Below are positions 1 to 12,658 of a DNA stretch of 12,658 nucleotides, piece by piece. The number at the start of each line of letters is the position of its first letter. Within the stretch, counting starts at the first letter, position 1. The notes below the pieces were generated by a model. The model ran no database searches, had not been told where the DNA came from, and saw only the letters and a program-made list of their open reading frames with translations. The DNA is from a virus: UHGV virus genome UHGV-1796775. The stretch is one strand, 5' to 3'. A program made the position numbers and the translations under genes.

Positions 1-50
1 ATCGATACTGGAAAAAACTCTAACTCGGTGGCCAGTTTTTGTTGACCACT

Positions 51-1457
51 TCAGTATGCATAGCGAACGGCTGAGAGAACGTCGTCGTTAAGCTTGACGA
101 TCTTCCCGTTTTCATCACGGTGATAGAGGCGGAACTCCTCAAAGAATGGCTCACAGGTGTTGAATACTTTGAAGCGACCATCGAGCATCATGTCGCGCAA
201 TTCAGTGATGCCAGGCTCAACAGCATTACCGCCATCAGGCCATGTCGCATGCTCCTGTAACATCATAAAACCAGCATCTGCATACTGCCCTTTGAGCTGC
301 TCACCGCCGCCCTTCTCGTGCTGGTTTCCGTCATGAGGCCATGCGGTTGGCACTTTATGCGCCCATGATTTAACAGCTCCCCACGCCTGAACGGCTGTTT
401 TTTCTTTCGCCTTCCACACGCGTGAAACGTAGATTGTGTCTGCGTCCTTATCCCACCAAAGCTGAACCTGCGCCTGTGGGTGATCCCATCCGAAATCCAT
501 CCCGCCAATTACGTAGAAGTGATCAGGACACTCGAACGGCTGACACTTAATCGTCTCTTCCGGTATCTGGAAGATTCGACCACTACCCATCGTAGGAATG
601 CCGCGAGCACGCGCCTCTCTCTCATGCTCGGGATAGGATGCGATGATTTGCTCTTTCTGCTCGTCGGTGTAGTGCTCTGCGTCATAGATGGTCATGTTGA
701 CCACTTTCTGCGACTTGCTGGGATTCTTCAGGAACTTGGTAACAACGTCAGACATCCCCATCAGCGGGGTAAACGTCAGAATTGAGAATTGCCCGTATTT
801 GTTGGTACGGGTAAGACCTTCGCCATAAATGCTGTATGGTGGCTCTTCGTCAAACCACACGCCGTGGATTGTGTCACCCTGCCAGCGAGCACGGCCTTGC
901 GAGTATGGCTTGAAGTAGCAGATTGAAATGCCATCTTCAACGCCATCAGCCGTGTGATGCTTAACCAGAAGATGATCAACAAGGTTCGGAAAGAAAGGAG
1001 ACTTCTTCCAGCTAATGATGTCTTCTTTCGGTATGGAACCGTAGCCAGGCTCATCATTCTCTTCGATACGACCGCACAGGATGCGTTGAGTCGTTTTGGT
1101 TACAGTCTCGTTTGTCTCGCCACCAATCCAGAAGACAACAGGCTCATAGAAACGCTTACCTTTCCACTCACCGCCATATTTACCATCAGCAGGATAGCCT
1201 TTTGTGCCCGGGTAACGCCCTGTAAGGTGAAACGCGACTTCAGCAGCACCAGTAAATGACTTACCAAGCTGGTTACCAGCCATAAAACATCGCTCTGGAT
1301 AGTCATGTCCGGCGTCGATGAACTCACGCTGTTTGCTGTATGGCGTAAATTCATATAGCAGGTGTGTGTTCCGGTAGTTCTCTTCTTCTTCGAGTAGCTC
1401 GAGCAATTCGATTTGCTCTTCGTCGCTCAGGTTATCAAGAATCGCGTCCAGTTCCAC
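51..1457 (-). CDS. terL: Terminase large subunit (P22/Sf6-like), 468 aa
   Basis: Long minus-strand ORF. GTG start at 1457, with AAGGAG about 10 nt upstream, overlaps the terS 3' end by 23 nt. Placement directly after terS fits a packaging module; family assignment is by recollection only. Stop at 51-53. Confidence 0.85.
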
Positions 1458-1923
1458 GGTTGAATAGCTCCTTGATACGAGAGCGTCGCTTATCGCGATC
1501 TCCCTTATCAGGTGTCACGTCTTCAACTTGCGACTGCTCTTTGAGGCCCAAATCACGGGCGATGATGTTAGCGTTGAGAAGGTCAGCGGCTGCGCCAGAG
1601 AATTTCTGGTCGTAGATGATGTCTTCCGCTCGTGATGTGACGTCAGAAAAACCTTCCATTGACCGGAAGGTTCCCCATGTTTGCCTGGTGATATCAAGGA
1701 AGGTACACAATCCTGAAATAGTCATGGCTCGCATCTTAGGGACATTAGCCTTAATTATTTCTCCCTGATATGAAAATACCTTACCCTCCCATAGCGGGTT
1801 ATCATCAGCCCACTCGAAGTATTCACAACAAGCAGCCCACAGCGCCTCAGGCGATTCGAATTTAGGATTTCGCCCATGACTACTGCGGGCCTCCCAAAAT
1901 CGGTTGCCCTTTGGTGCTGCCAT
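1435..1923 (-). CDS. terS: Terminase small subunit (P22 gp3-like), 162 aa
   Basis: ORF track 1435..1929; I prefer the ATG at 1923 ([17 protein letters not shown]...), which has better spacing from a GTGAG Shine-Dalgarno than the ATG at 1929. The N-terminal sequence is characteristic of P22-type small terminases from memory. Confidence 0.8.
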
Positions 1924-1958
1924 ATTCATCTCACTTATTTGTTATTTCAGGTTGAGCA

Positions 1959-2201
1959 TCATGCTCCGGTAGTGAACAGGTCTAACGCTTCCTTCGATTT
2001 ACGCACCGCTTCGATAGTTCGGGTCGTGATATCTGAATTAGCGCCGCCTGACTGGAAGTGAATTTTGAATAGCTCAAGCTTCAGCTCGTCAGTGCCAATG
2101 AACTGAAATGCCTCCTCTGCGGCTGCGTTCTGGTTCATGACCAGTTTGTAAATCTCTAACTGGAATTTCTGTTCTTCAGTCATGGGAATAATCTCTGCCA
2201 T
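1959..2201 (-). CDS. Hypothetical protein, 80 aa
   Basis: Minus-strand ORF with ATG at 2201 and an alternative ATG at 2183. No convincing RBS for the first ATG. It sits between the lysis and packaging modules; no recognisable motif. Confidence 0.5.
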   Translation of the reverse strand: MAEIIPMTEEQKFQLEIYKLVMNQNAAAEEAFQFIGTDELKLELFKIHFQSGGANSDITTRTIEAVRKSKEALDLFTTGA

Positions 2202-2304
2202 TGTTGGCTACATTTATCCGTTAAAAGGGATATCAGTTAAGTTATCCCGTGTAGGGTATAAGCCATTATCAAAGCCACTCTGTAGGGAATGGCTTTTGTA
2301 ATAA

Positions 2305-2685
2305 CTACTGTTCGCTTAGCTTCTGCTTCAGCAAGTAACCTTCTAGCATCCAGATTTTGTTTACAGCATTTTGCCGGGCAATCTTCCGACCAATTTCTGC
2401 ATCAAAATTTTCCGGACTTGCACAGGCACTCTCTCCGGTGACGGTGAAGCCATTCTTCAGCACCAGTACGCAGAAAGTGAGCAACTTCAATGGCGATAAA
2501 TCACGATCGCCTTCTTCTGGTTTTTCTCTGCCACAATATTCGTTGCTGGAAATGGCACCATTACGTCCATCATAAGCAGTAAAGTAATGCTCGCTTTTAA
2601 TCACGTCTTCGATGTGCTGCGGGGTGATTCGCGGTGCCGTTTTTCCTTTCTCAACGATTTCTTTTTCGATTTGCTGGTCGTTCAT
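2305..2685 (-). CDS. Hypothetical phage protein, 126 aa
   Basis: Minus-strand ORF with ATG at 2685 and an AGGGT Shine-Dalgarno about 8 nt upstream. Its stop codon is immediately followed by a conserved hairpin element. Function unknown. Confidence 0.6.
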   Translation of the reverse strand: MNDQQIEKEIVEKGKTAPRITPQHIEDVIKSEHYFTAYDGRNGAISSNEYCGREKPEEGDRDLSPLKLLTFCVLVLKNGFTVTGESACASPENFDAEIGRKIARQNAVNKIWMLEGYLLKQKLSEQ

Positions 2686-2911
2686 AATTATGACCCTGTG
2701 GAGTGGTTGCTTGATTAGGATGTCTTTCCATCAGTCCGCCACCACAAAGAATCTTTTTTGCCATAAGGCAGGAGGTTCATCTTTCAGTGGCTGCCAGTGT
2801 TATTTCCCCACTTACTGGCTTGGGTTGTTTCGTGGTACTGCCGTTAACTGGTTACCCAGAATAAATTCCGGTTTCATTATCAAGCCCACCCGTAGATAGG
2901 CTTTGTAATGG

Positions 2912-3199
2912 CTACTTCTTCAGAAATGATTCGATGAACTCACGCCGGGGATGACGATAGTTCAGAATATCTTCTGGCATCCTCATAAAGCGGTTGTTGC
3001 CGTCTTTGGCAGTAACAAAACAGCTGTGAACTCCGCAGACATCCGTTTTGATTGTGTCGCTATACTCAAAAAGCAACTGAGCCATCTTCTCTTGCCATTC
3101 TGGCGGCATAGCCTCCATGAATACTCGCGGCATCACGCAGAACGGCGCATGCGTAAGACCAAACCACAGTTGCAGGTCTTTACGATATTCTTCATCCAT
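2912..3199 (-). CDS. Hypothetical protein, 95 aa
   Basis: Minus-strand ORF with ATG at 3199 and an AAGGT Shine-Dalgarno about 7 nt upstream. It is preceded by an intrinsic-terminator-like hairpin and followed by a conserved hairpin element. No recognisable motif. Confidence 0.55.
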   Translation of the reverse strand: MDEEYRKDLQLWFGLTHAPFCVMPRVFMEAMPPEWQEKMAQLLFEYSDTIKTDVCGVHSCFVTAKDGNNRFMRMPEDILNYRHPRREFIESFLKK

Positions 3200-3217
3200 C
3201 GTCTTTACCTTTGTTGC

Positions 3218-3242
3218 AATAAAAATCCCCGCAAATGCGAGG
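3218..3242 (-). terminator. Intrinsic terminator-like hairpin downstream of Rz
   Basis: Minus-strand RNA CCUCGC-AUUU-GCGGGG followed by AUUUUUAUU: a 6-bp GC-rich stem, 4-nt loop and U-tract, lying 19 nt upstream of the 95-aa ORF start. Confidence 0.5.
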
Positions 3243-3417
3243 CTAAATCCTGGTATTTGTAATGACTGGCTCTTATCTCAACGCAGCCCCTTACCGCGCG
3301 CCAGATGCTCAATATCAAGCATCAGCAATGAGATGTTTAATCTGGATTCACTCCAGAAGTGATCACCACCCTGTCTACAGAGCCAGATGTGAAGGATGAT
3401 GAGTAAAATTATCGCTA

Positions 3418-3855
3418 TCATCGAAGGCATTGCGTCCTGATGTATTCCTGCAGGTAGTTAACCTGCGCGGTTATCCTGTCGATTCCACTTCGGAGACGGT
3501 AATAATTGAGTTCAGCATCTGCTGTAAGTCCTGGACTTTCTCCATCGCCCATGCCGCTGGCTCCGGTCGTTGACTTTGCACAGGTGGCGGCGACTTGCAG
3601 GCGCTTACGCCCAGCAGAAACATCAGCACGGAGACTTTCGATAGTCGCGTTAGCATCAGCAAGCTCCTTTGTATATCTGGCGTCGAGTTCTGCTACATCA
3701 CGTTGACGCTTCTGCATGTCAGCGATTGTGGATGTGGCCTTATCGCGCTGCTCTTTGTAGGCGATGGCGTTATCACGGTAATGATTAACCGCCCATGACA
3801 GACAGACGATGATGCAGATAACCAGAGCGGAGATAATCGCGGTGACTCTGCTCAT
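3418..3855 (-). CDS. Rz: Rz i-spanin (inner-membrane spanin subunit), 145 aa
   Basis: ATG at 3855 overlaps the R stop (ATGA). N-terminal TM segment [23 protein letters not shown] matches lambda Rz from memory; the rest is homologous but diverged. Rz1 is embedded in the +1 frame. Confidence 0.85.
3471..3656 (-). CDS. Rz1: Rz1 o-spanin (outer-membrane lipoprotein), 61 aa
   Basis: Embedded inside Rz in another frame. ATG at 3656 with AAGGAG 7 nt upstream (the ORF track's 3662 start is a TTG). Signal peptide with lipobox VSAC followed by a proline-rich stretch, as expected for Rz1. Confidence 0.75.
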
Positions 3856-4328
3856 ACCTCAATCTCTCTGACCGTTCCACCCGCTTCTTTGAATTTTGCA
3901 ATCAGGCTGTCAGCCTTATGCTCGAACTGACCATAACCAGCGCCAGGCAGTGAAGCCCAGATATTGCTGCAACGGTCGATAGCCTGACGAATATCACCGC
4001 GATCAATCATCGGCAAAGCGCCACGCTCCTTAATCTGCTGCAATGCAACAGCATCCTGGCTTTTAGGAGAGAAGTCTTTCAGGCCAAGCTGCTTACGATA
4101 GGCATCCCACCAACGGGAAAGAAGCTGGTAACGCCCGGCGGCTGTTGATTTGAGTTTTGGGTTTAGCGTGACAAGTTTGCGAGGGTGATCAGAGTAATCA
4201 GTGAATAGCTCTCCGCCTACAATGACGTCATAACCATGATTTCTGGTTTTCTGTCGTCCGTTATCAGTCCCCTCTGACCACGCCAGCATATCGAGGAACG
4301 CCTTACGTTGATTATTGATTTCCACCAT
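3852..4328 (-). CDS. R: Endolysin R (lambda-type lytic transglycosylase), 158 aa
   Basis: Translation [39 protein letters not shown]... matches lambda R from memory nearly residue for residue. Start overlaps the S 3' end. Confidence 0.93.
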
Positions 4329-4635
4329 CTTCTACTCCGGCTTTTTTAGCAGCGAAGCGTTTGATAAGCGAACCAATCGAGTCAGTACCGATGTAGCCGA
4401 TGAACACGCTCGTTATATAAGCGAGATTGCTACTTAGTCCGGCGAAGTCGAGAAGATCACGAATGAACCAGGCGATAATGGCGCACATCGTTGCGTCGAT
4501 TACTGTTTTTGTAAACGCACCGCCATTATATCTGCCGCGAAGGTACGCCATTGCAAACGCAAGGATTGCCCCGATGCCTTGTTCCTTTGCCGCAAGAATG
4601 GCGGCTAACAGGTCATGTTTTTCTGGCATCTTCAT
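4312..4635 (-). CDS. S: Holin S (class I; dual-start holin/antiholin), 107 aa
   Basis: Translation [39 protein letters not shown]... is essentially lambda S. The Met1-Lys2-Met3 dual start (ATG at 4635 and 4629) gives S107 antiholin and S105 holin. Confidence 0.93.
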
Positions 4636-5041
4636 GTCTTACCCCCAATAAGGGGATTTGCTCTATTTAATTAGGAATAAGGTCGATTACTGATCGAACA
4701 AATCCAGGCTACTGTGTTTAGTAATCAGATTTGTTCGTGACCGATATGCACGGGCAAAACGGCAGGAGGTTGTTAGCGCAGCCTCTTGCCATCCGCTTTC
4801 ACGAAGGTCATGTGTAGAAGGCCGCAGCGTAACTATTACTAATGAATTCAGAACAGACAGTGGCTACGGCTCAGTTTGGGTTGTGCTGTTGCTGGGCGGC
4901 GATGACGCCTGTACGCATTTGGTGATCCGGTTCTGCTTCCGGTATTCGCTTAATTCAGCACAACGGAAAGAGCACTGGCTAACCAGGCTCGCCGACTCTT
5001 CACGATTATCGACTCAATGCTCTTACCTGTTGTGCAGATAT

Positions 5042-5098
5042 AAAAAATCCCGAAACCGTTATGCAGGCTCTAACTATTACCTGCGAACTGTTTCGGGA
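5042..5098 (-). terminator. tR' late terminator
   Basis: Long hairpin with arms at 5048-5056 and 5090-5098 (UCCCGAAAC / GUUUCGGGA) followed on the minus-strand RNA by a U6 tract (plus-strand A-run 5042-5047). Confidence 0.7.
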
Positions 5099-5233
5099 TT
5101 GCATTTTGCAGACCTCTCTGCCTGCGATGGTTGGAGTTCCAGACGATACGTCGAAGTGACCAACTAGGCGGAATCGGTAGTAAGCGCCGCCTCTTTTCAT
5201 CTCACTACCACAACGAGCGAATTAACCCATCGT
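5042..5233 (-). ncRNA. Lambda-type 6S late leader RNA (pR' transcript terminated at tR')
   Basis: Minus-strand sequence from ACGATGGGTTAATTCGCTCG... to ...GCATAACGGTTTCGGGATTTTTTAT matches the lambda pR'-tR' transcript as I remember it. End coordinates are approximate. Confidence 0.7.
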
Positions 5234-5240
5234 TGAGTCA

Positions 5241-5269
5241 AATTTACCCAATTTTATTCAATAAGTCAA
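5241..5269 (-). promoter_or_regulatory. Late promoter pR' with overlapping Q-utilisation (qut) region
   Basis: On the minus strand, TTGACT (-35, plus 5264-5269), a 17-bp spacer, then TAAATT (-10, plus 5241-5246). The arrangement matches lambda pR' from memory; it lies just downstream of Q. Confidence 0.7.
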
Positions 5270-5311
5270 TATCATGCCGTTAATATGTTGCCATCCGTGG
5301 CAATCATGCTG

Positions 5312-5935
5312 CTAACGTGTGACCGCATTCAAAATGTTGTCTGCGATTGACTCTTCTTTGTGGCATTGCACCACCAGAGCGTCATACAGCGGCTTAACAG
5401 TGCGTGACCAGGTGGGTTGGGTAAGGTTTGGGATTAGCATCGTCACAGCGCGATATGCTGCGCTTGCTGGCATCCTTGAATAGCCGACGCCTTTGCATCT
5501 TCCGCACTCTTTCTCGACAACTCTCCCCCACAGCTCTGTTTTGGCAATATCAACCGCACGGCCTGTACCGTGGCAATCTCTGCATCTTGCCCCCGGCGTC
5601 GCGGCACTACGGCAATAATCCGCATAAGCGAATGTTGCGAGCACTTGCAGTACCTTTGCCTTAGTATTTCCTTCAAGCTTTGCCACACCACGGTATTTCC
5701 CCGATACCTTGTGTGCAAATTGCATCAGATAGTTGATAGCCTTTTGTTTGTCGTTCTGGCTGAGTTCGTGCTTACCGCAGAATGCAGCCATACCGAATCC
5801 GGCTTGTGATTGCGCCATCCCCATAGCAGCCATCACATCAGTACCGGAAAGAGAGTCAGAAGCCGTGGCCCGTGGTGAGTCGCTCATCATCGGGCTTTTT
5901 GGCGAATGAAATTTAGCTACGCTTTCGAGTCTCAT
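5312..5935 (-). CDS. Q: Late-gene antiterminator Q (lambda-type), 207 aa
   Basis: Translation [27 protein letters not shown]...[12 protein letters not shown]...CGRCKGVGY is lambda Q with its zinc-binding Cys cluster. ATG at 5935 overlaps the NinI stop (ATGA). Confidence 0.93.
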
Positions 5936-6597
5936 GCGCCTTCTCCCTGTACCTGAATCAATGTGAGGTTTCCGCAGAACACTGCGCCGGTATCGATATA
6001 CATCTGGTTGGCAAACTTGAGTGGTTTCACTGCTGGCGTATGACCAAAGATGAACGTGTCCGCGCCTTTGATTTCTTTCACGATCCCGTCTTGTGAGTTG
6101 CTGATTCGTTCGCGGTTCCAGATTACCTGCTGATGATCAACTGGCTTTCCAAACTCGTATTCGTCACAAGGATAATCGGCGTGGCAGATGACATATTTTT
6201 TTCCTTTACTCACCAGTTCGATGATTAACGGAAGTTCATCTGCTTTATGGGCAAGAGCTTTAGCCAGAATTTCTTTGTCGTAATCGAGATTAAAGAACCA
6301 GCCACCGCCATTAAGCAGCCAGTGATTGACGTTTCCACGCTCTGATAAGCCATCAATCATCATTTGCTCATGGTTTCCACGTACAGCTCTGAACCAGGGG
6401 AATGTGATTAATTCCAGACATTCGACGTTCTCTGTACCGCGATCAACCAAATCGCCCACCGAGATAAGCAGGTCTTTTTTGGTGTCGAATCCTATCGTCT
6501 CCAGTTTTTTCATCAGGTTCGTGTAGCATCCGTGCAGATCGCCAACTACCCAAATATTTCGGTATTTGCTGCCATCAATTTTTTCGTAATAGCGCAT
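5932..6597 (-). CDS. ninI: NinI serine/threonine protein phosphatase (lambda PPase-like), 221 aa
   Basis: Metallophosphatase motifs GDLHG, GDLVDRG and GNHE. I place the start at the internal ATG (6597, MRYYEKIDG...), as in lambda PPase; the ORF-track N-terminal extension overlaps NinH and is probably not translated. Confidence 0.88.
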
Positions 6598-6781
6598 CTC
6601 TTTCACTCCATCCGCGATGAACCATGAGAACGTCGTTGACGATGGCGTGCATTTTCCCGTCTTTATCATCAACGTATTTTCTGACCGTACCGCGACTACA
6701 TTTCAGTCTGCGTGCTACTTCTGTCTGGTTTCCGTATGCTTCAACGAGCATGTCTGGAATGGTTTTTACTGAGAACGTCAT
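6575..6781 (-). CDS. ninH: NinH (small Fis-like HTH protein), 68 aa
   Basis: 68-aa ORF with ATG at 6781 overlapping the NinG stop (ATGA). Sequence and size match lambda NinH from memory. Confidence 0.8.
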
Positions 6782-7389
6782 GCGGCCTCACTTCTGCTAT
6801 TTCGCAGGTCTTTGAGTTTCTGCTGATACTCCGCCTTGATGGCCCTGCACTCTTCGACAGTCCAGCGATGGCGGTTATGGTTTGATTCGATTTCGTCTAC
6901 TGCTTCCTGCCCGATGCGATTAATCAGTTCGACGCGATACGGAACGAGATTTCCGCTTTTGTGCTGGTTGCACACCACGCATTGCTTGTGAATATTGCGT
7001 TCATCAAATCGGAGTTGAGGTGCCGCAGCAGTTGTCCGGTAATGTCCGGCATCCCACTGAGCAGACGTGAGCGTTCCGCACGAGATACATGGTAAGTCGC
7101 GGTCTCTTTCTCTGATGAAGGCGTTTACGGCTTGTTGGGCTTGTTTAATCCAGTAACTGCGGGGCTTTAAGGCGAGTTTTCGAATCTTAAGTTTATCTTT
7201 CTGTCTCTGATCCTCTCGTCGTCGTTTCTTCTCTGCTGCTTTTTCCGCTTTTTCGCGTTCTTTACTTCGTCGTTCGAGTGCTATCTTGGTTCCACACTCT
7301 GGAGAGCACCACCACTGATTAGCGAATGCAGGGTGAAACCATTCCCGACATTCATCGTTTTTACATCGTCTTCGCGCTGGTTTAGCCAT
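6778..7389 (-). CDS. ninG: NinG / Rap recombination-associated endonuclease, 203 aa
   Basis: Cys-rich N- and C-terminal clusters ([23 protein letters not shown]) separated by a basic stretch, typical of NinG/Rap. ATG at 7389. Confidence 0.85.
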
Positions 7390-7552
7390 CGTCTTCTTCC
7401 TCGTACATTGAGCTATTCGGATCGCTCATCAGTTCTGCGCAGCAGTGCTCACACACGTGAACTTCCAGCACATGCAGCTTCTGGCCGCAGTTAGCGCACG
7501 TTAAAGCCCGCTCGACGCTTCCTTGTTCGTAACTTCGATTTTGGTCAATCAC
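7382..7552 (-). CDS. ninF: NinF-like small zinc-finger protein, 56 aa
   Basis: Not in the ORF track. Hand translation from a GTG at 7552 (GTGA overlap with the NinE stop; GAGGA upstream) gives [56 protein letters not shown]. Its stop overlaps the NinG start. Confidence 0.6.
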
Positions 7553-7731
7553 CTTGTTTTCCTCGCACGTTCTCTAAGCCACCGGATATCCCACAGGTGA
7601 GCCGTGTAGTTGAAGGTTTTTACGTCAGATTCTTTTGGGATTGGCTTGCGTTTATTTCTGGAGCGTTTCGTTGGAAGGTATTTGCAGTTTTCACAGATTA
7701 TGTCGGTGATGCTTCGTCGCTGTCGTCTCAT
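7549..7731 (-). CDS. ninE: NinE, 60 aa
   Basis: Internal ATG at 7731 ([23 protein letters not shown]...) overlaps the methyltransferase stop (ATGA). The ORF-track 90-aa version is an upstream extension into that gene. Confidence 0.75.
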
Positions 7732-8255
7732 GCCGCCCTCCTGACGCCCTGCCCGATCGCCATCAATGCCGCTTTGGATACGGTAGTAAACATCCGTCGA
7801 GGACTGATGAACGGTCGCCAAATCAGCAGCATGGAGCCTTTGCTGTTTCCCTTCTTCTCCAGCCCTGTCGATGGTTCGATAAAATTAATCCGTCCATCAG
7901 TGATAATACGAACTTCGTCAACACTCTCCAGAGCCTTGCTGAACCATCCGACAGACATATCCTCTGGCACAAGCATCACTACCGTCTGTCGTTGTTGTAT
8001 GCACTGCTCAGCGGCTTTTTCCACCCACGGCCTGATATTGCTGTACGGTGGGTTATTCCAGATTGCACCGTGGCTTATCCACTCAGAATTTAGCGCGTCG
8101 TCGGCCTCAGTTAGCCAGTGAGCGCACAGAGCATTTTTGTCGCTCGCTGCCGAATCCAGCCAGAATCCAAACTCAATATCCAGTGCATCAAAAAGCCAAA
8201 GCGGCGTTTGCCAGCAGTCCTTGTCGTGTGCTGGCGTATTTGATTTGATAGTCAT
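7728..8255 (-). CDS. Phage Dam-type DNA N6-adenine methyltransferase, 175 aa
   Basis: Catalytic NPPY motif ([10 protein letters not shown]) and the typical N-terminal [13 protein letters not shown] block of the phage Dam family. Preferred start is the ATG at 8255 (ATGA overlap with the NinB stop, GGAAGG Shine-Dalgarno); an alternative ATG at 8282 would add 9 residues. Confidence 0.8.
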
Positions 8256-8698
8256 GCAGCCTTCCCTTTTCGTTGTGACCATTCATACTCTCGCCGGGAG
8301 TCATCACTCCACCGCACGTTGCGCTCTGAGCCGAACCAGAACATGATTTCGATAAGCTCAGTCATGCTGGCCTTTCGCATTTTGCTGGTACGCACTCCAA
8401 GCATAACAACGCCACCGTCGATACCAGGCGCACTTCGTTGCTCCAGTTTTTTGGTCTTAAGCCACAGAGCAGTGAACAGATCTTTCCAGTCCTCCGGCGC
8501 AAGTCTCTGTCCATGCCAAAGCACCTGACGCGAAACATCGTTCAGCATCGGCCACATACGGTCATTCTGCGCTTTGCTCCGCTTGGGTTCTTTAATGTGG
8601 ACTTCGTGAGGTGACTTGTCGTCGATGGGAAGTGAGAGTATTGCGTCTATGGCGTTGTTTCTGATTGCTTCGTTGCGAAGCATGTATATTTGCTTCAT
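8252..8698 (-). CDS. ninB: NinB (Orf-family recombination mediator), 148 aa
   Basis: Homologous to lambda NinB from memory (e.g. LNDVSRQVLWHG, RNVRWSDD). ATG at 8698 with GAGGT upstream. Confidence 0.85.
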   Translation of the reverse strand: MKQIYMLRNEAIRNNAIDAILSLPIDDKSPHEVHIKEPKRSKAQNDRMWPMLNDVSRQVLWHGQRLAPEDWKDLFTALWLKTKKLEQRSAPGIDGGVVMLGVRTSKMRKASMTELIEIMFWFGSERNVRWSDDSRREYEWSQRKGKAA

Positions 8699-8720
8699 CG
8701 TTACCTCGACTTAATTCTGC

Positions 8721-9047
8721 TCATTGATACCCTCTCTCACTTAATCGCCTCCACGCTTCGTTAAACTCCTCTCTGGTTGCGCCGGATTTTCTTTCTTCAA
8801 ACATCATGCATTCGCTGATGTCTCCCCATGACTTTGGTCGCTTTTCAGCGAACAGATCATCCCATTCGAATACCCAGCGGCCTGATTTTCGGTAGTGGTA
8901 AATGGTCAGCCATGTTGTGCTGTTCGCTGGATACCCATAGAGAACTTCGACTTTTTGATCACGGTCTTTATGCTTTTTCAGCAGGATAAAGCCAGCAACC
9001 AGTGAAGCTCCGGCAAGAATGATGATTGGAATTTGCCAGTCAGCCAC
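8721..9047 (-). CDS. Hypothetical membrane-anchored protein, 108 aa
   Basis: GTG start at 9047 with a strong GGAGGG Shine-Dalgarno 4 nt upstream. One N-terminal TM helix (IPIIILAGASLVAGFILL) followed by a basic stretch and a charged, Trp-rich soluble domain. No family recognised. Confidence 0.55.
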   Translation of the reverse strand: MADWQIPIIILAGASLVAGFILLKKHKDRDQKVEVLYGYPANSTTWLTIYHYRKSGRWVFEWDDLFAEKRPKSWGDISECMMFEERKSGATREEFNEAWRRLSERGYQ

Positions 9048-9059
9048 ACTTCCCTCCGC

Positions 9060-9266
9060 TTAACTCACAAAACTCCACGCCATTTTTGCTACGACAACAG
9101 GCATAACACCGATAATCACCCACAGGAGAATGCTACCGAAAAGCACACCCACCATGTCTTTACCTTCGCCTACCAACCGGACAAAACTGCTGGCAACCAC
9201 AATGAACGTCGCCACCATCCACATAGCACCGAGAATCCTCAATGCAGAGAAAATTAACTCAACCAC
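9060..9266 (-). CDS. Hypothetical small integral membrane protein, 68 aa (two predicted TM helices)
   Basis: GTG start at 9266 with GGGGGAGAG upstream. Two hydrophobic segments separated by a GEGKD turn. Its stop abuts the RBS of the next ORF. No family recognised. Confidence 0.5.
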   Translation of the reverse strand: MVELIFSALRILGAMWMVATFIVVASSFVRLVGEGKDMVGVLFGSILLWVIIGVMPVVVAKMAWSFVS

Positions 9267-9280
9267 GATTTACTCTCCCC

Positions 9281-9313
9281 CAAATAAAAAGGCCTGCGAT
9301 TACCAGCAGGCCT
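9281..9313 (-). terminator. Intrinsic terminator downstream of the helicase gene (tR2-like position)
   Basis: Perfect 8-bp GC-rich inverted repeat AGGCCTGC / GCAGGCCT (plus 9290-9297 and 9306-9313) with an 8-nt loop, followed on the minus-strand RNA by UUUUUAUUU. Confidence 0.7.
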
Positions 9314-9341
9314 GCTATCAGCTCAGTGATGTAGATGGTCA

Positions 9342-10778
9342 TCAGAATCCTCCTTTCTTCTTGGACTGCGGTTCCTCGCGTTCACGGCGGCGCATTTCAG
9401 CAGACTGTTGGTCTGTGTCATAAATAGCGCCATTTGCCTGAATGCAATACACCGTGCCGGTATTGCCATGACGATTGAGACGAAGGATTAGTTCAGTTTC
9501 ACCAGGTGGAACACTGTCATCAAAAGCGCCTTCACGATGGATCCCCACCCAATAATCGCAATCCTGTTCAATCTGCCCTGTATCTCGTGAGTCACTTGGT
9601 AATGGGCGTTTATTGGTTCGGCTTTCCAGTGCGCGGTTAAGCTGCGTCAGAAGCACAACAACGCAATCAAGCTCTTTGGCAAGGTTCTTCAGTCCTTTGG
9701 TGATCATGCCGTAGGCAAGGTCGTTGCGATCGGCCTTCTCAGCGGTCATTAGTGTCAGGTAATCGACCAGAATCATGCCAACACATCCTTTTTCTCGCTT
9801 GATTCGACGGCTTTCGCTGACGATTTGAGCCAGAGATAATCCCGGCGTGTCGTCGATGTAAAGCAGGTCGATTTCACTCAAGCGATTGGCTGTTTCGATC
9901 GCCCTGTTGAAGTCACCATCGTAATCACCCTGATAGCCGTCATCAGCGTCATTTGTCGCCGGAAGGTAAAAAATATTCGGGTTAACACCTGACTTCTGTC
10001 CTACCAGTTTTTCCAGTATCTGGTCACCGGGCATTTCAAGGCTGAACATCAGAGCAGGCTTTTTCTCATGCACTGCGCAGTTGATTGCCATCTGGCTGTA
10101 TAGTGTCGTTTTCCCCATCTTAGGGCGAGCGCCAATGACAAACAGAGAGCCTTTCACCAGACCTTTCGGTGACAGCATCCTGTCCAGCGATGGGATCCCT
10201 GTGCTCATTCCTCGCTGTTCGCCTGACGGGTCAAATCGCTTCTCAAGGTCGCTAACCCAGTCTTCCATGACCTCACCAAATGAGCGAAGGCCGCGACGCG
10301 ATCCGGTTTTTGCATGGTCTGTCAGTTGCGTGAAAATCGCCTGAATAGCTTCGTACTTCTGCGTTGCAGTCATTCCGTTGCGGGAATAGAGCAATTCCGT
10401 CGCTTCAGTCATGCGGTTGATGGCGTAGCGTTCCATTGCGGTTTCACGAACCTGCATTGCATAGGCAACGATGTTTGCGGCGCTTGGCGTGTTCTTTGCG
10501 ATCTCAGCGATATAAGCAAAACCGCCAACAGACGCCGTTAACGATTTACGCTCCAGTTCATCGAAAAGCGTCAGGCCATCTACTGGCTTTTGCTCCCGGT
10601 GCATTCTGGTTATTTCTTCGAAAAGGATTTTGTGTGGTCGGCTGTAAAATGAATCAGGCTTCAGCATCGCCAGAACTTTCTGGACGCGCTCACTGCTGTC
10701 ATCATCCAGAAGCAATCCACCAATCACCGCCTGCTCTGCCTCGATGCTATGGGGCGGCGCATAAAAATTATCGGTCAT
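9342..10778 (-). CDS. DnaB-family replicative DNA helicase, 478 aa
   Basis: Walker A GARPKMGKTT and conserved DnaB C-terminal domain blocks (LVDYLTLM, TGQIEQDCDY). ATG at 10778 with GAGGGTGA upstream (the ORF-track start at 10793 is a GTG). Overlaps the initiator gene end by 11 nt. Confidence 0.9.
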   Translation of the reverse strand: MTDNFYAPPHSIEAEQAVIGGLLLDDDSSERVQKVLAMLKPDSFYSRPHKILFEEITRMHREQKPVDGLTLFDELERKSLTASVGGFAYIAEIAKNTPSAANIVAYAMQVRETAMERYAINRMTEATELLYSRNGMTATQKYEAIQAIFTQLTDHAKTGSRRGLRSFGEVMEDWVSDLEKRFDPSGEQRGMSTGIPSLDRMLSPKGLVKGSLFVIGARPKMGKTTLYSQMAINCAVHEKKPALMFSLEMPGDQILEKLVGQKSGVNPNIFYLPATNDADDGYQGDYDGDFNRAIETANRLSEIDLLYIDDTPGLSLAQIVSESRRIKREKGCVGMILVDYLTLMTAEKADRNDLAYGMITKGLKNLAKELDCVVVLLTQLNRALESRTNKRPLPSDSRDTGQIEQDCDYWVGIHREGAFDDSVPPGETELILRLNRHGNTGTVYCIQANGAIYDTDQQSAEMRRREREEPQSKKKGGF

Positions 10779-11667
10779 CGTGTTCACCCTCACGAACTTT
10801 CAGGTAGGTATTGTCGTTAAGCAGGAAATCAAATCCCTTTTTGTGCCAGACAGTTCCGCGTTGATGGTTTGGACGCTCTTCGAACATCCATCGGCAATTT
10901 TCGCCTACGTAGCTCAAATAATTTCTCCAGTCCTGCATCGTGAACCCATGCCCGTCAAGCTGGCGGGTTATCACTCCGGCTTTGCGCCAGAACGTTCGGA
11001 TCTGGTTTTTACGCTTGTCATTCAGTGCGCGGATTCTTGGCGCTTCAGGAAGGATTTCGTGGTAAGCATCGACAACATCCTGACAGCTGACGGAAGGTTT
11101 TTTCTTGTCAGACTTTTTGTCTGCTGTGGCACTCTCTAATACGTCAGTATTAGAGATAATATTATTATATTCTTTATCTGTGGTAATTTGCTGGTAATCT
11201 GCTGGTACAGCATTGCTTACAGGCATTGGTATTGCTGGCTTTGAGGTGGTAATTTGCTGGTAATCTGCTGGTACAAAATTTGACTGATAATCGTCATATT
11301 TCTCTACCGAGAAAACTGAGAATTTACCGTGTGAAACCCAGTCAATCATGCCGAGTTTTTTGAACTTTCTAAGCAGGTACTGAACGCGATCTGGTTTGAG
11401 TCCTGTTTCAAACGCCAGAGAGTTTCTACCGCCAAGTAGCTTCCCTCTGCCTACCAGAATTTCTCCTGCGTCAGTCATTACATACTCAGGCGTATGCTTT
11501 GCTTTGAGGATTAAGTGAACCCACAGATGCGCAGCTTCTGCGTCCTTGTAAAACGGCACATCCATAATTTTACGGTGCAGCAAGGCATACCCCTTACCGC
11601 TGCTTTGATGCGGTTGTTGTAGCCTTCTGGCCTCTCTGGCTTCGGCTAGATTAGATATGTTACTCAT
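10768..11667 (-). CDS. Replication initiator (lambda O-like / P22 gp18-like), 299 aa, containing the origin
   Basis: ATG at 11667 with AAGGAG upstream. Iteron repeats and an AT-rich tract lie inside the coding sequence, giving the repeated peptide [10 protein letters not shown]. Followed directly by the helicase gene, as in lambdoid replication modules. Confidence 0.85.
11134..11178. promoter_or_regulatory. Origin AT-rich unwinding region with a 22-bp perfect palindrome
   Basis: CTCTAATAC-GTCA-GTATTAGAG (11134-11155; 9-bp perfect arms) followed by AT-rich ATAATATTATTATATTCTTTATC, immediately adjacent to the iterons. Confidence 0.6.
11180..11275. repeat. Origin iterons (ori) inside the initiator gene
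   Basis: Two exact 28-bp copies of GGTAATTTGCTGGTAATCTGCTGGTACA at 11182-11209 and 11248-11275, each made of two ~12-bp units GGTAAT(T/C)TGCTG. A degenerate unit sits between them (GGTATTGCTGG, about 11229-11239). Confidence 0.8.
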
Positions 11668-11806
11668 GACCTTTCTCCTTCTGCATCAGCTTCACCTTTT
11701 CCAACTCAGCCCGGAATCGACCAGGCTGCTTGAAGCTGGACAGGAAGCGATCACGTAGTATGTGTTTGTGAATTTTGTCCTGGTAAGGACTGAGTTGTTT
11801 TGTCAT
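11660..11806 (-). CDS. Small hypothetical protein, 48 aa, between cII and the initiator
   Basis: Not in the ORF track. ATG at 11806 with AGGAG 5 nt upstream; translation [48 protein letters not shown]. Its TAA stop overlaps the initiator ATG. The start context GGAGTCATTATGACAAA is the one I recall for lambda O. Confidence 0.5.
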
Positions 11807-11818
11807 AATGACTCCTGT

Positions 11819-11895
11819 GGATTGATCCAGTAATGACCTCAGAACTCCATCTGGATTTGATCAGAACGCTCGGTTGCCGCCGGGCGTTTTTTATT
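11819..11895 (+). ncRNA. oop: oop antisense RNA (lambda-type), overlapping the cII 3' end
   Basis: Plus-strand GATTGATCCAGTAATGACCTCAGAACTCCATCTGGATTTGATCAGAACGCTCGGTTGCCGCCGGGCGTTTTTTATT matches lambda oop from memory. Terminator hairpin CGCTCGG/CCGGGCG at 11867-11886 plus a T6 tract; CATAAT -10 at 11804-11809. The 5' end is approximate. Confidence 0.7.
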
Positions 11896-12132
11896 GGTGA
11901 GAATCGAAGCAACTTGTCGTGCCAATCGAGCCATATCGTCGTCAACGACGCCCCATTCAAGAACAGCAAGCAGCATTGAGAACTTTGGAATCCAGTCCCT
12001 CTTCCACCTGCTGATCTGCGACTTATCAACTCCCACAGCTTCCGCTGTCTTCTCAGTTCCAAGCATTGCGATTTTGTTAAGCAACGCACTCTCGATTCGT
12101 AGAGCCTCGTTGCGTTTGTTTGCACGAACCAT
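11839..12132 (-). CDS. cII: Transcriptional activator CII (lambda-type), 97 aa
   Basis: Internal ATG at 12132 gives [66 protein letters not shown]..., lambda CII nearly residue for residue. The ORF-track N-terminal extension runs into nutR and is not translated. Confidence 0.93.
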
Positions 12133-12201
12133 ATGTAAGTATTTCCTTAGATAACAATTGATTGAATGTATGCAAATAAATGCATACACCATAGGTGTGG
12201 T

Positions 12202-12232
12202 TTAATTTGATGCCCTTTTTCAGGGCTGGGAT
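12202..12232 (-). promoter_or_regulatory. nutR N-utilisation site (boxA + boxB)
   Basis: On the minus strand, boxA-like GCTCTTAC (plus 12224-12232) and boxB hairpin GCCCTGAAAAAGGGC (plus 12202-12216), between cro and cII exactly as in lambda. This implies an N antiterminator encoded outside the window. Confidence 0.75.
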
Positions 12233-12251
12233 GTGTAAGAGCTGGAATGTC

Positions 12252-12467
12252 TTAAGCGGCTTTGTGTTCCGGCGGGAACACGTCATCAAGACTGACTTTT
12301 GCGCCTAACTTGTTTAGGCACTCAACAAGAGCACGGCATGTTTTAAGGTCTGGGAAGCGACGACCAGATTCCCAATGTCCGATAGCTCCCTGTGTGCATC
12401 CAACTGCCTTAGCAAGTGTTGTTTGAGAGATATTCAGTGACTCTCGATATTTTCGTAGGTTGCTCAT
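12252..12467 (-). CDS. cro: Cro-like HTH repressor (XRE family), 71 aa
   Basis: ATG at 12467 with GGAGGG 3 nt upstream gives MSNLRKYRESLNISQTTLAKAVGCTQGAIGHWESGRR..., a helix-turn-helix protein. Not lambda Cro. The ORF-track upstream extension covers the operator region. Confidence 0.8.
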   Translation of the reverse strand: MSNLRKYRESLNISQTTLAKAVGCTQGAIGHWESGRRFPDLKTCRALVECLNKLGAKVSLDDVFPPEHKAA

Positions 12468-12493
12468 ATGCCCTCCATAGTAACCATGAAACA

Positions 12494-12522
12494 ATAATAC
12501 GATATGTACTTTTAGAATGCAA
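12494..12522 (-). promoter_or_regulatory. Candidate PR promoter for cro
   Basis: On the minus strand, TTGCAT (-35, plus 12517-12522), a 17-bp spacer, then TATTAT (-10, plus 12494-12499), about 25 nt upstream of the cro ATG. Lies in the AT-rich divergent intergenic region 12468-12578. Confidence 0.5.
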
Positions 12523-12578
12523 ACAAAAAATACATCTTGTGCATGGATGGTTTTAGTACAGAGCGTAATAATAAGGGT

Positions 12579-12658
12579 ATGAAAATGAAATGGTATGAAC
12601 TGGCTAGATCCAGAATGAAAGAGCTCGGCATAACTCAAGAGAAGTTAGCCGAAGAGCT
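12579..12658 (+). CDS. CI-like repressor, N-terminal fragment (truncated by the window edge)
   Basis: ATG at 12579 gives MKMKWYELARSRMKELGITQEKLAEEL, the start of an HTH (XRE-type) domain, divergent from cro. Only 26 codons are visible. Confidence 0.6.
   Translation, partial: MKMKWYELARSRMKELGITQEKLAEE

Follow-up and report, generated by a model that had tools for sequence, protein, structure and literature searches.

A 48-codon open reading frame between cII and the initiator of a lambdoid virus is the known gene orf48, selected as a protein and linked to its initiator

In the viral DNA studied here (the window, the whole 12,658-nt stretch of UHGV virus genome UHGV-1796775), the ATG that in lambda opens the initiator gene O opens a 48-codon open reading frame (ORF), and an initiator of a different kind begins at its end. 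This arrangement raises the question of whether the small ORF is a gene and, if so, what ties it to the replication module that it precedes. A sequence-only reading had described a basic ORF of 48 aa between cII and the initiator, and this description was accurate (12 K/R versus 6 D/E; Table 1). By length alone such an ORF is within chance, since, counting from 25 aa upward, 35 ORFs overlap the surrounding 2.6 kb. Homology places it beyond chance: it has a full-length match to Pfam DUF2740 (PF10872; 99.4 bits versus a cutoff of 27; E = 8.9e-29), in which residues 6 to 48 cover profile positions 1 to 43 of 43, and it matches phrog_1913 over positions 1 to 48 of 48 (E = 2.7e-28).

The ORF is the lambdoid gene orf48, a genuine and already catalogued protein-coding gene. 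HK022 orf48 (AAB60271) and HK620 hkaW are 100% identical to it, and P22 orf48 (NP_059609) has the same length and 85% identity. The suggestion in the sequence-only reading that P22 has an orf48 at this position was borne out (P22 positions 32349 to 32495, where it likewise overlaps gene 18 by 8 nt). The HK022 record carries the annotation [quoted passage not shown] Databases and print already cover the ORF, how conserved it is, that lambda lacks it, and the recombination seam, and the comparison with lambda at orf48 has been published (Hayes 2012, PMC3349717). As a discovery, orf48 weighs little. Every homologue found carries PF10872, and genera differ hardly at all in the core KQPGRFRAE(L/W)E. 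PHROG 1913 is labelled "tail protein," a label that has also spread into RefSeq records. None of the loci examined places the gene in a tail module; its position is invariably between cII and the initiator in the early-right operon, so the label is an annotation error.

Table 1. Features at and around orf48 in the window
Feature	Position	Strand	Basis or remarks
DnaB-like replicative helicase (HK022 "P"), third module gene	9342..10778	-	DnaB and DnaB_C domains
HK022-type O-like initiator, 299 aa	10768..11667	-	296/299 identical to HK022 O; phrog_345
orf48 (DUF2740) CDS	11660..11806	-	ATG start, 48 aa + TAA
Predicted mRNA hairpin	11661..11760	-	11734-11760 pairs with 11661-11706; inner hairpin 11707-11728
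Putative Po promoter for oop	11781..11809	+	-35 TGGTAA 11781-11786; -10 CATAAT 11804-11809
Boundary sequence bsq5, conserved 33 nt	11799..11831	-	Alignments; Sf6 annotation "bsq5; boundary sequence"
Putative oop-like antisense RNA	11817..11893	+	Antisense to cII 3' end; ~77 nt
Lambda-type cII, 97 aa	11839..12132	-	95/97 identical to lambda cII; PF05269, E 5e-48

Selection on orf48 was analyzed in 158 loci, which yielded 46 distinct ORF DNAs. The frame was open in all 46, and third codon positions varied in 30 of the 48 codons, compared with 14 each for first and second positions. Over codons 11 to 42, pN/pS was 0.22 to 0.31 in the orf48 frame and at least 1.0 in four of the five alternative frames; antisense frame 2 gave 0.41 to 0.43, yet it contains stops in 28 of the 46 variants. 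As protein identity had guided the choice of loci, we checked for ascertainment bias by keeping a single DNA for each distinct protein (17 proteins; pS 0.48). The result held, with pN/pS of 0.23 to 0.29 versus 1.35 to 1.66 in the other two sense frames. The Orf48 peptide sequence is under frame-specific purifying selection. The suggestion that the ORF is a real small protein was therefore sound and, because it is selected as a protein, orf48 is not an annotation artefact.

Some stretches of the ORF bear other constraints. Synonymous diversity is low in codons 2 to 10 (pS 0.12; pN/pS 0.85), as expected because the Po -10 and -35 hexamers overlap them; codons 27 to 34, which form the inner hairpin, show very little synonymous change; and the initiator Shine-Dalgarno sequence and start leave the last codons no freedom. 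These stretches are what one would point to in arguing that orf48 is not a gene and that its open frame is a by-product of constraints on Po, the boundary sequence, RNA structure, and the initiator ribosome-binding site (RBS). We consider that account very improbable, given that the frame stays open in all variants and in family members as low as 58% identical, that third-position substitutions dominate and low pN/pS is confined to the orf48 frame, and that orf48 persists in loci without any bsq5 or oop sequence.

The start of orf48 lies in sequence shared with lambda. The minus-strand sequence upstream of it, CCACAGGAGTCATTATGACAAA, is the lambda O initiation context, and alignments placed the start of lambda O (38686) at the same ATG, as the earlier reading had stated. 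Four- and five-way alignments identified ACTGGATC.ATC.ACAGGAGT.ATTATG.CAAA as common to the window, lambda, P22, HK022, HK97, and Sf6. Through ATGACAAA, 31 of 33 positions of the window agree with lambda, and divergence sets in directly thereafter, as had been claimed. These 33 nt are the boundary sequence bsq5, which is likewise 31/33 identical to the annotated Sf6 bsq5 and which contains the Shine-Dalgarno sequence GGAG (11812 to 11815), the ATG, and the first 8 coding nucleotides. In lambda the bsq5 ATG opens O; in other phages it opens orf48 or gp53. Going by its mention in PMC3349717, bsq5 is "sequence 5" of Clark et al. 2001. Because Sf6 is annotated with a boundary at this site and three different left flanks join lambda O, orf48, or gp53 exactly at bsq5, the site is a recombination joint, in agreement with the sequence-only reading.

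On the opposite strand, Po was located from the annotated P22 oop promoter (32346 to 32374), with which it is homologous position for position, and was read from the sequence, with the -35 hexamer 17 bp upstream of the -10. The putative -10 reads ATTATG on the complementary strand and so contains the orf48 start codon. When positions 11500 to 12300 were scanned for a strict sigma-70 consensus, no promoter was called, Po included. The oop-like RNA has a GC-rich terminator stem (11863 to 11890, plus strand) followed by a T-run and homologous to the annotated P22 oop terminator, and the region is near-identical to lambda in alignment (fold z, -2.68). In Rfam, nothing matched oop above threshold, and the sole hit was a sub-threshold one to AgvB. 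By sequence-level criteria, then, oop and Po appear to be present, in keeping with the lambda-like cII, oop, and Po recognized earlier. With the extent of oop taken from PMC3349717, its 5' end would lie ~11 nt upstream of the orf48 ATG, adjoining the orf48 Shine-Dalgarno sequence. The small ORF had been said to overlap both Po and the oop 5' region. The first overlap stands, as the P22 oop promoter covers the orf48 start; the second does not, as the oop 5' region falls within 11660 to 11838 and outside the ORF.

To the right, the sequence-only reading had seen a non-lambda initiator, and BLASTP of the window initiator against lambda O indeed found no similarity. The initiator and the helicase form the HK022 replication module, the helicase being identical to the HK022 P fragment at 237 of 239 positions and 31% identical to P22 gp12. 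orf48 is the first cistron of this HK022/P22-type module, which consists of orf48, an O-like initiator, and a phage-encoded helicase. The initiator Shine-Dalgarno sequence, AAGGAG (11675 to 11680), sits inside orf48, in its last codons. orf48 and the initiator gene have 8 nt in common, ATGAGTAA (11660 to 11667; initiator ATG at 11665 to 11667), and the orf48 stop codon lies 2 nt after the initiator ATG, so that the ORF ends 5 nt after it. The claim that the TAA overlaps the initiator ATG was right about the genes, which do overlap, and wrong about the codons, as ATGAGTAA is not of the ATGA type. The earlier reading had also staked its case on conservation of the ORF in related phages, unequal synonymous and nonsynonymous change, and a lambda O start context; the ORF is conserved, its pN/pS is skewed, and the context is present on alignment.

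We asked which neighbors orf48 keeps across loci. No locus examined lacks the overlap between the ORF and the initiator start, which measures 8 nt where orf48 has 48 codons and 4 nt in locus L160. The upstream neighbors of orf48 fall into seven clusters, including ParB-like and YdaS/YdaT genes, and the overlap with the initiator is unchanged among them. In one locus (L162), a 249-aa gene lies between cII and orf48, and orf48 still adjoins the initiator. A lambda-type cII is joined to the left of orf48 in other contigs as well as in the window, and P22-like synteny is kept in members from Erwinia, Klebsiella, Pluralibacter, and Citrobacter. orf48 travels with the initiator and not with cII and oop. 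Wherever the gene after the initiator could be identified, it encodes a DnaB-like helicase or a primase-helicase. All 79 of the 79 lambda-P loci are without any small ORF, but this sample is near-uniform (98 to 100% identical to lambda P), and the link between orf48 and a phage-encoded helicase is confounded by lineage.

The initiators beside orf48 have two unrelated types of N terminus and five types of C terminus, and the overlap is kept with all of them. Free reassortment pairs each initiator type with orf48 in some loci and with the unrelated gp53 in others, which argues against a specific partnership between Orf48 and an initiator N-terminal domain. Such reassortment also fits an account in which orf48 encodes a moron-like or host-directed protein (for host takeover, anti-defence, or similar) that merely fills a permissive slot separating bsq5 from the initiator, its function having no relation to the latter. 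Two unrelated families of small ORFs, orf48 and HK97 gp53/Sf6 gp42, alternate in this slot; lambda manages without either; and the orf48 family is very narrow, with 16 representatives among 1.84 billion proteins, all from Enterobacterales. We nevertheless consider a host-directed protein rather unlikely: orf48 is without a promoter or terminator of its own, the overlap with the initiator start is kept in every locus examined when the upstream gene changes, and neither NCBIfam nor PADLOC returned a match for orf48 or gp53.

Further searches for a function gave little. The predicted fold of Orf48 is a basic two-helix hairpin (helices at residues 7 to 23 and 28 to 44; mean pLDDT, 79), for which a structural search returned no informative match. 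The family profile matched nothing among PDB sequences with an E value better than 0.7, and the 16 matches from the deep profile search included no remote relative of known function. The searched literature assigns no function to orf48, and the papers that name the gene use it merely as a landmark; the term "DUF2740" was not found there, and "hkaW" gave unrelated matches only. An entry named "orf48: gnarl1" (Silas et al. 2025) proved to be an unrelated protein of Klebsiella phage KpV79, named by the numbering scheme of that paper.

In the predicted mRNA hairpin (Table 1), the 5' arm consists of orf48 codons ~16 to 25 and the 3' arm contains the initiator Shine-Dalgarno sequence, the AUG, and the first codons. 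Its z score in the window was -3.7 to -4.2, the lowest minimum free energy z of 19 gene starts, and the same topology was predicted in all 10 of the diverse homologues folded, with a z of only -0.7 in L160. The anti-Shine-Dalgarno/Shine-Dalgarno helix has two compensatory pairs. In a wider alignment at fixed register, the number of covarying pairs was not above that of shuffles (400/500), and the pairedness of the initiator RBS (0.69) was not exceptional, a value that 20% of upstream shuffles reach. A test of cognate versus non-cognate duplexes gave a nominal 1/20000 that is confounded by relatedness, with mixed per-lineage ranks. The occluding hairpin shared by all ten folded mRNAs suggests translational coupling, but its support from covariation is weak; we regard coupling of initiator translation to orf48 as plausible.

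If coupling operates, the act of translating orf48 might be all that matters (for coupling and possibly for oop control), and the peptide might have no function. The geometry suits such a leader: the ORF ends just past the initiator AUG and holds its Shine-Dalgarno sequence beneath a predicted occluding hairpin, the oop 5' end would abut the Shine-Dalgarno sequence of orf48, and the unrelated gp53-type ORF of HK97 occupies the same slot with a similar predicted Shine-Dalgarno-occluding hairpin (z, -3.85). The peptide, however, is under purifying selection (pN/pS 0.23 to 0.31 at pS 0.48) with a nearly invariant core, and the hairpin statistics are weak, so a functionless peptide seems quite improbable to us.

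Starting from its identity, position, coding selection, and initiator linkage, we slightly favor a reading in which orf48, a known coding gene and the first cistron of its module, acts both in cis by coupling and in trans through an accessory peptide; its expression, the coupling, and a role of the peptide in replication are what we infer. In this mechanism, orf48 would be read from the early-right (pR) transcript and would use the strong RBS embedded in bsq5 and the same ATG as lambda O. Ribosomes translating orf48 would open the hairpin that hides the initiator Shine-Dalgarno sequence and AUG and would terminate beside that AUG, and initiator synthesis would therefore be coupled to orf48 translation. 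In trans, the Orf48 peptide would be a small accessory factor that assists replication modules of the initiator/helicase type.

Leader ORFs that gate translation of a plasmid initiator under antisense control are found in R1 (tap-repA, with CopA) and ColIb-P9 (repY-repZ, with Inc RNA). A more elaborate possibility, which we hold to be unlikely, is that orf48, and gp53 by convergence, is the leader cistron of an oop-controlled initiator switch laid out like R1 CopA/tap/repA. The oop RNA, pairing up to position -11, would hinder 30S binding at the bsq5 RBS, orf48 translation would melt the hairpin, and the peptide would add a second function in trans. Were this so, oop would set the dosage of the initiator in addition to the level of cII in helicase-encoding lambdoid phages.

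How does the locus compare with known systems? P22 and HK022 orf48 and HK620 hkaW belong to the same family and have the same length and position, between a cII-like gene with oop and the initiator. The 8-nt overlap is shared by the window, P22 (32488 to 32495), and HK022 (836 to 843). The window differs from P22 and HK022 in that its left partner is a lambda-type cII, not one of the HK022 or P22 type, and otherwise in nothing material. The lambda O start has the same Shine-Dalgarno sequence, ATG, and first 8 nt, and the same Po -10 on the other strand; however, the lambda ATG opens the 299-aa O directly, whereas the window ATG begins the 48-aa ORF and lies 139 nt ahead of the initiator start, which has a Shine-Dalgarno sequence of its own. 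The putative Po -35 hexamer of the window is of the P22 type, unlike that of lambda. HK97 gp53 and Sf6 gene 42 (53 aa) occupy the same slot after bsq5, overlap the initiator start, and accompany the same initiator and helicase types. Their first codons, which span Po, encode the same MTK..YQ(D/E)K as those of orf48, but no homology is detectable past the first ~11 codons, and their overlap is 14 nt versus 8.

To what is known of these phages, our analysis adds that orf48 is selected as a protein, that it travels with the initiator, and that its widespread labelling as a "tail protein" is mistaken. The coupling hairpin, if real, would show how helicase-carrying lambdoid phages meter their initiator, and oop RNA could gain a second target, a modest addition to a classic regulatory region. 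The resemblance to tap and repY lies in a short ORF that ends at the initiator start, an initiator RBS that is predicted to be structured, and an antisense RNA, oop, that would begin beside the leader Shine-Dalgarno sequence. It differs in that the Orf48 peptide is under purifying selection and in that the known target of oop is cII. The likeness of orf48 to tap and repY appears to be one of layout and not of membership.

The 48-codon ORF orf48 is a real and already catalogued gene of unassigned function, located at a recombination boundary that has been described before. The sequence-only reading of the feature as a whole was correct: the gene is annotated as orf48 in P22 and HK022, is represented in Pfam as DUF2740, and begins at the conserved boundary sequence bsq5. 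Our additions are protein-level selection, which is robust, membership in the initiator/helicase module, and a tentative predicted coupling hairpin.

The window cII is identical to lambda cII at 95 of 97 positions. The downstream initiator had been called non-lambda, and BLASTP found no similarity between it and lambda O; it matches HK022 O at 296 of 299 positions and P22 gp18 only through weak C-terminal similarity. The helicase matches the HK022 'P' fragment (237/239). Alignments revealed a block, ACTGGATC.ATC.ACAGGAGT.ATTATG.CAAA, common to the window, lambda, P22, HK022, HK97, and Sf6. The window agrees with lambda at 31 of 33 positions up to ATGACAAA and diverges completely beyond it, in agreement with the claim that the frame departs from lambda O immediately after a shared start. 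The ATG of the block starts O in lambda and an annotated 'orf48' in P22 (32349-32495) and HK022, where the overlap with the initiator is 8 nt, as in the window; the suggestion of such a gene at this position in P22 was thus accurate. The HK022 record describes orf48 as 'sequence well conserved in phage p22; orf48 gene product; unknown', and the Sf6 annotation labels the 33 nt 'bsq5; boundary sequence'. Hayes et al. (PMC3349717) report a 33-nt block in 23 lambdoid phages, with the ATG of either lambda O or P22 orf48 at position 1, and divergence of a lambda/P22 hybrid inside Po. Because the comparison with lambda, P22, and HK022, the database annotations, and Hayes et al. agree, the proposed recombination joint at the start of the replication module is correct, as an observation and as an interpretation, and already in print. 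Among lambda-P loci (L246-L325), an identical lambda O start (ATGACAAATACAGC...) follows at least three left flanks in the 45 nt upstream of O, with lambda-type, P22 c1-type, and HK022 cII-type 3' ends, all joined exactly at bsq5. These flank swaps directly illustrate recombination at the boundary.

Database searches identified orf48 as a full-length DUF2740 member (99.4 bits) and a member of PHROG 1913. The peptide is conserved across phages, with homologues in 54 clusters of a 5.8-billion-protein set, 127 of 50,697 phage records, and ~370 IMG/VR contigs, and 16 matches among 1.84 billion cluster representatives. Within these sets, all homologues belong to Enterobacterales phages or prophages (Escherichia, Salmonella, Shigella-type, Citrobacter, Klebsiella, Pluralibacter, Enterobacter, and Erwinia). 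The PHROG 1913 label 'tail protein' has been carried over to many RefSeq records, including those of P22, HK620, HK630, and others (NC_002371 [P22gp50], NC_002730, NC_019723, NC_070949). This assignment is contradicted by genomic context, which is always the early replication module, and looks like a propagated annotation error.

The orf48 frame was open in all 46 distinct ORF DNA sequences drawn from 158 loci, and 30 of 48 third codon positions varied, compared with 14 each of the first and second positions. No known signal overlaps codons 11-42, where pN/pS was 0.22-0.31 in the orf48 frame and at least 1.0 in four of the five others; antisense frame 2 gave 0.41-0.43 and contained stops in 28 of the 46 variants. 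Retrieval of loci by protein similarity biases dN downward, and we therefore repeated the calculation with one DNA per distinct protein (17 proteins, divergent genera included; pS 0.48). The ratio was 0.23-0.29 in the orf48 frame; the two remaining sense frames gave 1.35-1.66. Codons 2-10 deviate (pS 0.12, ratio 0.85), as expected because the Po hexamers constrain the DNA there. Synonymous and nonsynonymous changes are thus far from equally frequent, specifically in this frame, and the small ORF that had been thought possibly real is under protein-level purifying selection.

At all 48-codon loci examined, orf48 abuts the initiator via ATGAGTAA (once ATGGATAA); at the divergent locus L160, the overlap is 4 nt. 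The genes upstream form seven clusters, several of which do not resemble cII. The DUF2740 gene directly follows and overlaps a ParB-like HTH gene in L334 (1-747) and a YdaS/YdaT pair in L335/L336 (1-834), cII being replaced in these loci. The called L335 product is 77 aa long, with an N-terminal extension. In L162, cII and DUF2740 are separated by an inserted 249-aa gene, and the initiator overlap is kept. Some orf48 loci wholly lack the bsq5/oop sequence. The initiator has two unrelated N-terminal types (HK022 O and P22 gp18/lambda-like) and five C-terminal types, and the next gene, wherever identifiable, encodes a phage DnaB-like helicase or primase-helicase. In HK97 and Sf6, an unrelated 53-aa ORF (gp53/gene 42) occupies the orf48 slot and pairs with the initiator and helicase types that orf48 pairs with. 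Retrieval with lambda P gave 80 contigs, 79 of which contain lambda O, with none detectable in the 80th; in all 79, the small ORF is absent and O begins immediately at the bsq5 ATG. This association is confounded by lineage because identity to lambda P in the sample is 98-100%. Together, these loci show that orf48 is part of the initiator/helicase module, not of cII/oop.

Features of the orf48 region in the window
Feature	Position	Strand	Remarks
cI		+	start only
cro-like HTH gene	12252-12467	-	minus-strand reading
cII	11839-12132	-	lambda type
orf48	11660-11806	-	48 codons
O-like initiator	10768-11667	-	299 aa
DnaB-like helicase	9342-10778	-	
Initiator Shine-Dalgarno	11675-11680	-	AAGGAG, inside final orf48 codons
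Predicted hairpin, upstream arm	11734-11760	-	L-R-D-R-F-L-S-S-F codons
Predicted hairpin, downstream arm	11661-11706	-	initiator Shine-Dalgarno, AUG, first codons
35-nt direct repeats	11180-11280	-	within O-like gene
Near-direct repeat	11810-11836	-	GAGGTCATTA and GGAGTCATTA
Po -10	11804-11809	+	CATAAT; homology with annotated P22 oop promoter (32346-32374)
Po -35	11781-11786	+	TGGTAA; orf48 codons 7-9; same homology
oop-like RNA	start near 11817	+	homology with annotated P22 promoter and terminator
oop-like terminator	11863-11890	+	strong
AgvB match	11831-11892	+	sub-threshold

The orf48 ATG is preceded at 5 nt by a GGAG Shine-Dalgarno. The stop had been described as overlapping the initiator ATG; since the genes share 8 nt (ATGAGTAA), it instead lies 2 nt past that ATG. 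The mechanical ORF start of the helicase is GTG 10793 (-), and HK022 annotation and alignment place it at ATG 10778 (MTDNFY...), giving an 11-nt overlap with the end of the initiator gene. The repeats in the O-like gene are 94% identical, 66 nt apart, and composed of tandem ~11-nt units (GTGGTAATTT GCTGGTAATCT GCTGGTACA) encoding a repeated 10-residue peptide. They look like an iteron-type origin inside the initiator gene; the equivalent Sf6 region is annotated rep_origin. The whole window (1-12658) is a mosaic that extends from terminase to the immunity region by way of lysis, Q, and nin genes; any single phage record covers at most 75% of it, and the best matches (IME10, Sf6, HK630; ~97-98% identity) cover differing segments.

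On the opposite strand, the Po -10 contains the orf48 start codon, as CATAAT is the reverse complement of ATTATG. The ORF had been said to overlap Po and the oop 5' region; the overlap with Po holds, and that with the oop transcript does not, the RNA beginning ~11 nt upstream of the ATG. Po was missed by a strict sigma-70 scan, and Rfam returned no oop match. Its sole match, located exactly on the oop-like RNA and extending over the whole model, was to AgvB, a prophage anti-GcvB sRNA (22.3 bits versus a gathering threshold of 56, E 0.2). AgvB-type sRNAs may derive from the oop locus, or the match may be due to chance. A Tyr/Asp polymorphism at orf48 codon 8 (TAC/GAC; column 22 of alignment A5) falls in the Po -35 (TGGTAA versus TGGTCA), so that the amino acid variant also alters the match to consensus. 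The near-direct repeat, with one copy just past the cII stop and the other just ahead of the orf48 ATG, brackets the oop 5' region. L160 (2985-3003) has one copy without the ~22 nt between; its cII-to-DUF2740 gap is just 11 nt, and it lacks both bsq5 and the usual oop start.

Folding of the mRNA between the orf48 and initiator starts predicted a ~100-nt hairpin whose z score (-3.7 to -4.2) is the lowest among 19 gene starts in the window. All 10 of the diverse DUF2740 genes that were folded share this topology in their MFE structures, with z scores of -0.7 to -3.9, as does the unrelated HK97 gp53-type ORF (z -3.85). The anti-SD/SD helix contains both of the compensatory pairs that RNAalifold found, namely 62:132 (UG in 35 sequences, AU in 17) and 64:130 (CG in 47, UG in 5, UA in 1), and 99.7% of alignment cells were paired overall. 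Other results weigh against the hairpin: in a wider 39-sequence set, the covariation pair count was not above shuffles (400/500), and the mean pairedness of the initiator RBS (0.69) was matched by 20% of upstream shuffles and is not exceptional. Cognate duplexes were predicted to be more stable than noncognate ones (-24.9 versus -22.7 kcal/mol; 1/20000), but this statistic does not correct for relatedness. Given the 8-nt overlap, the internal Shine-Dalgarno, and the stable predicted hairpin, translational coupling of orf48 and the initiator can reasonably be inferred from this geometry; a role for the hairpin in coupling is tentatively proposed. It is conceivable, though we consider it improbable, that oop, the leader ORF, and the initiator would form a switch resembling those of antisense-controlled plasmids.
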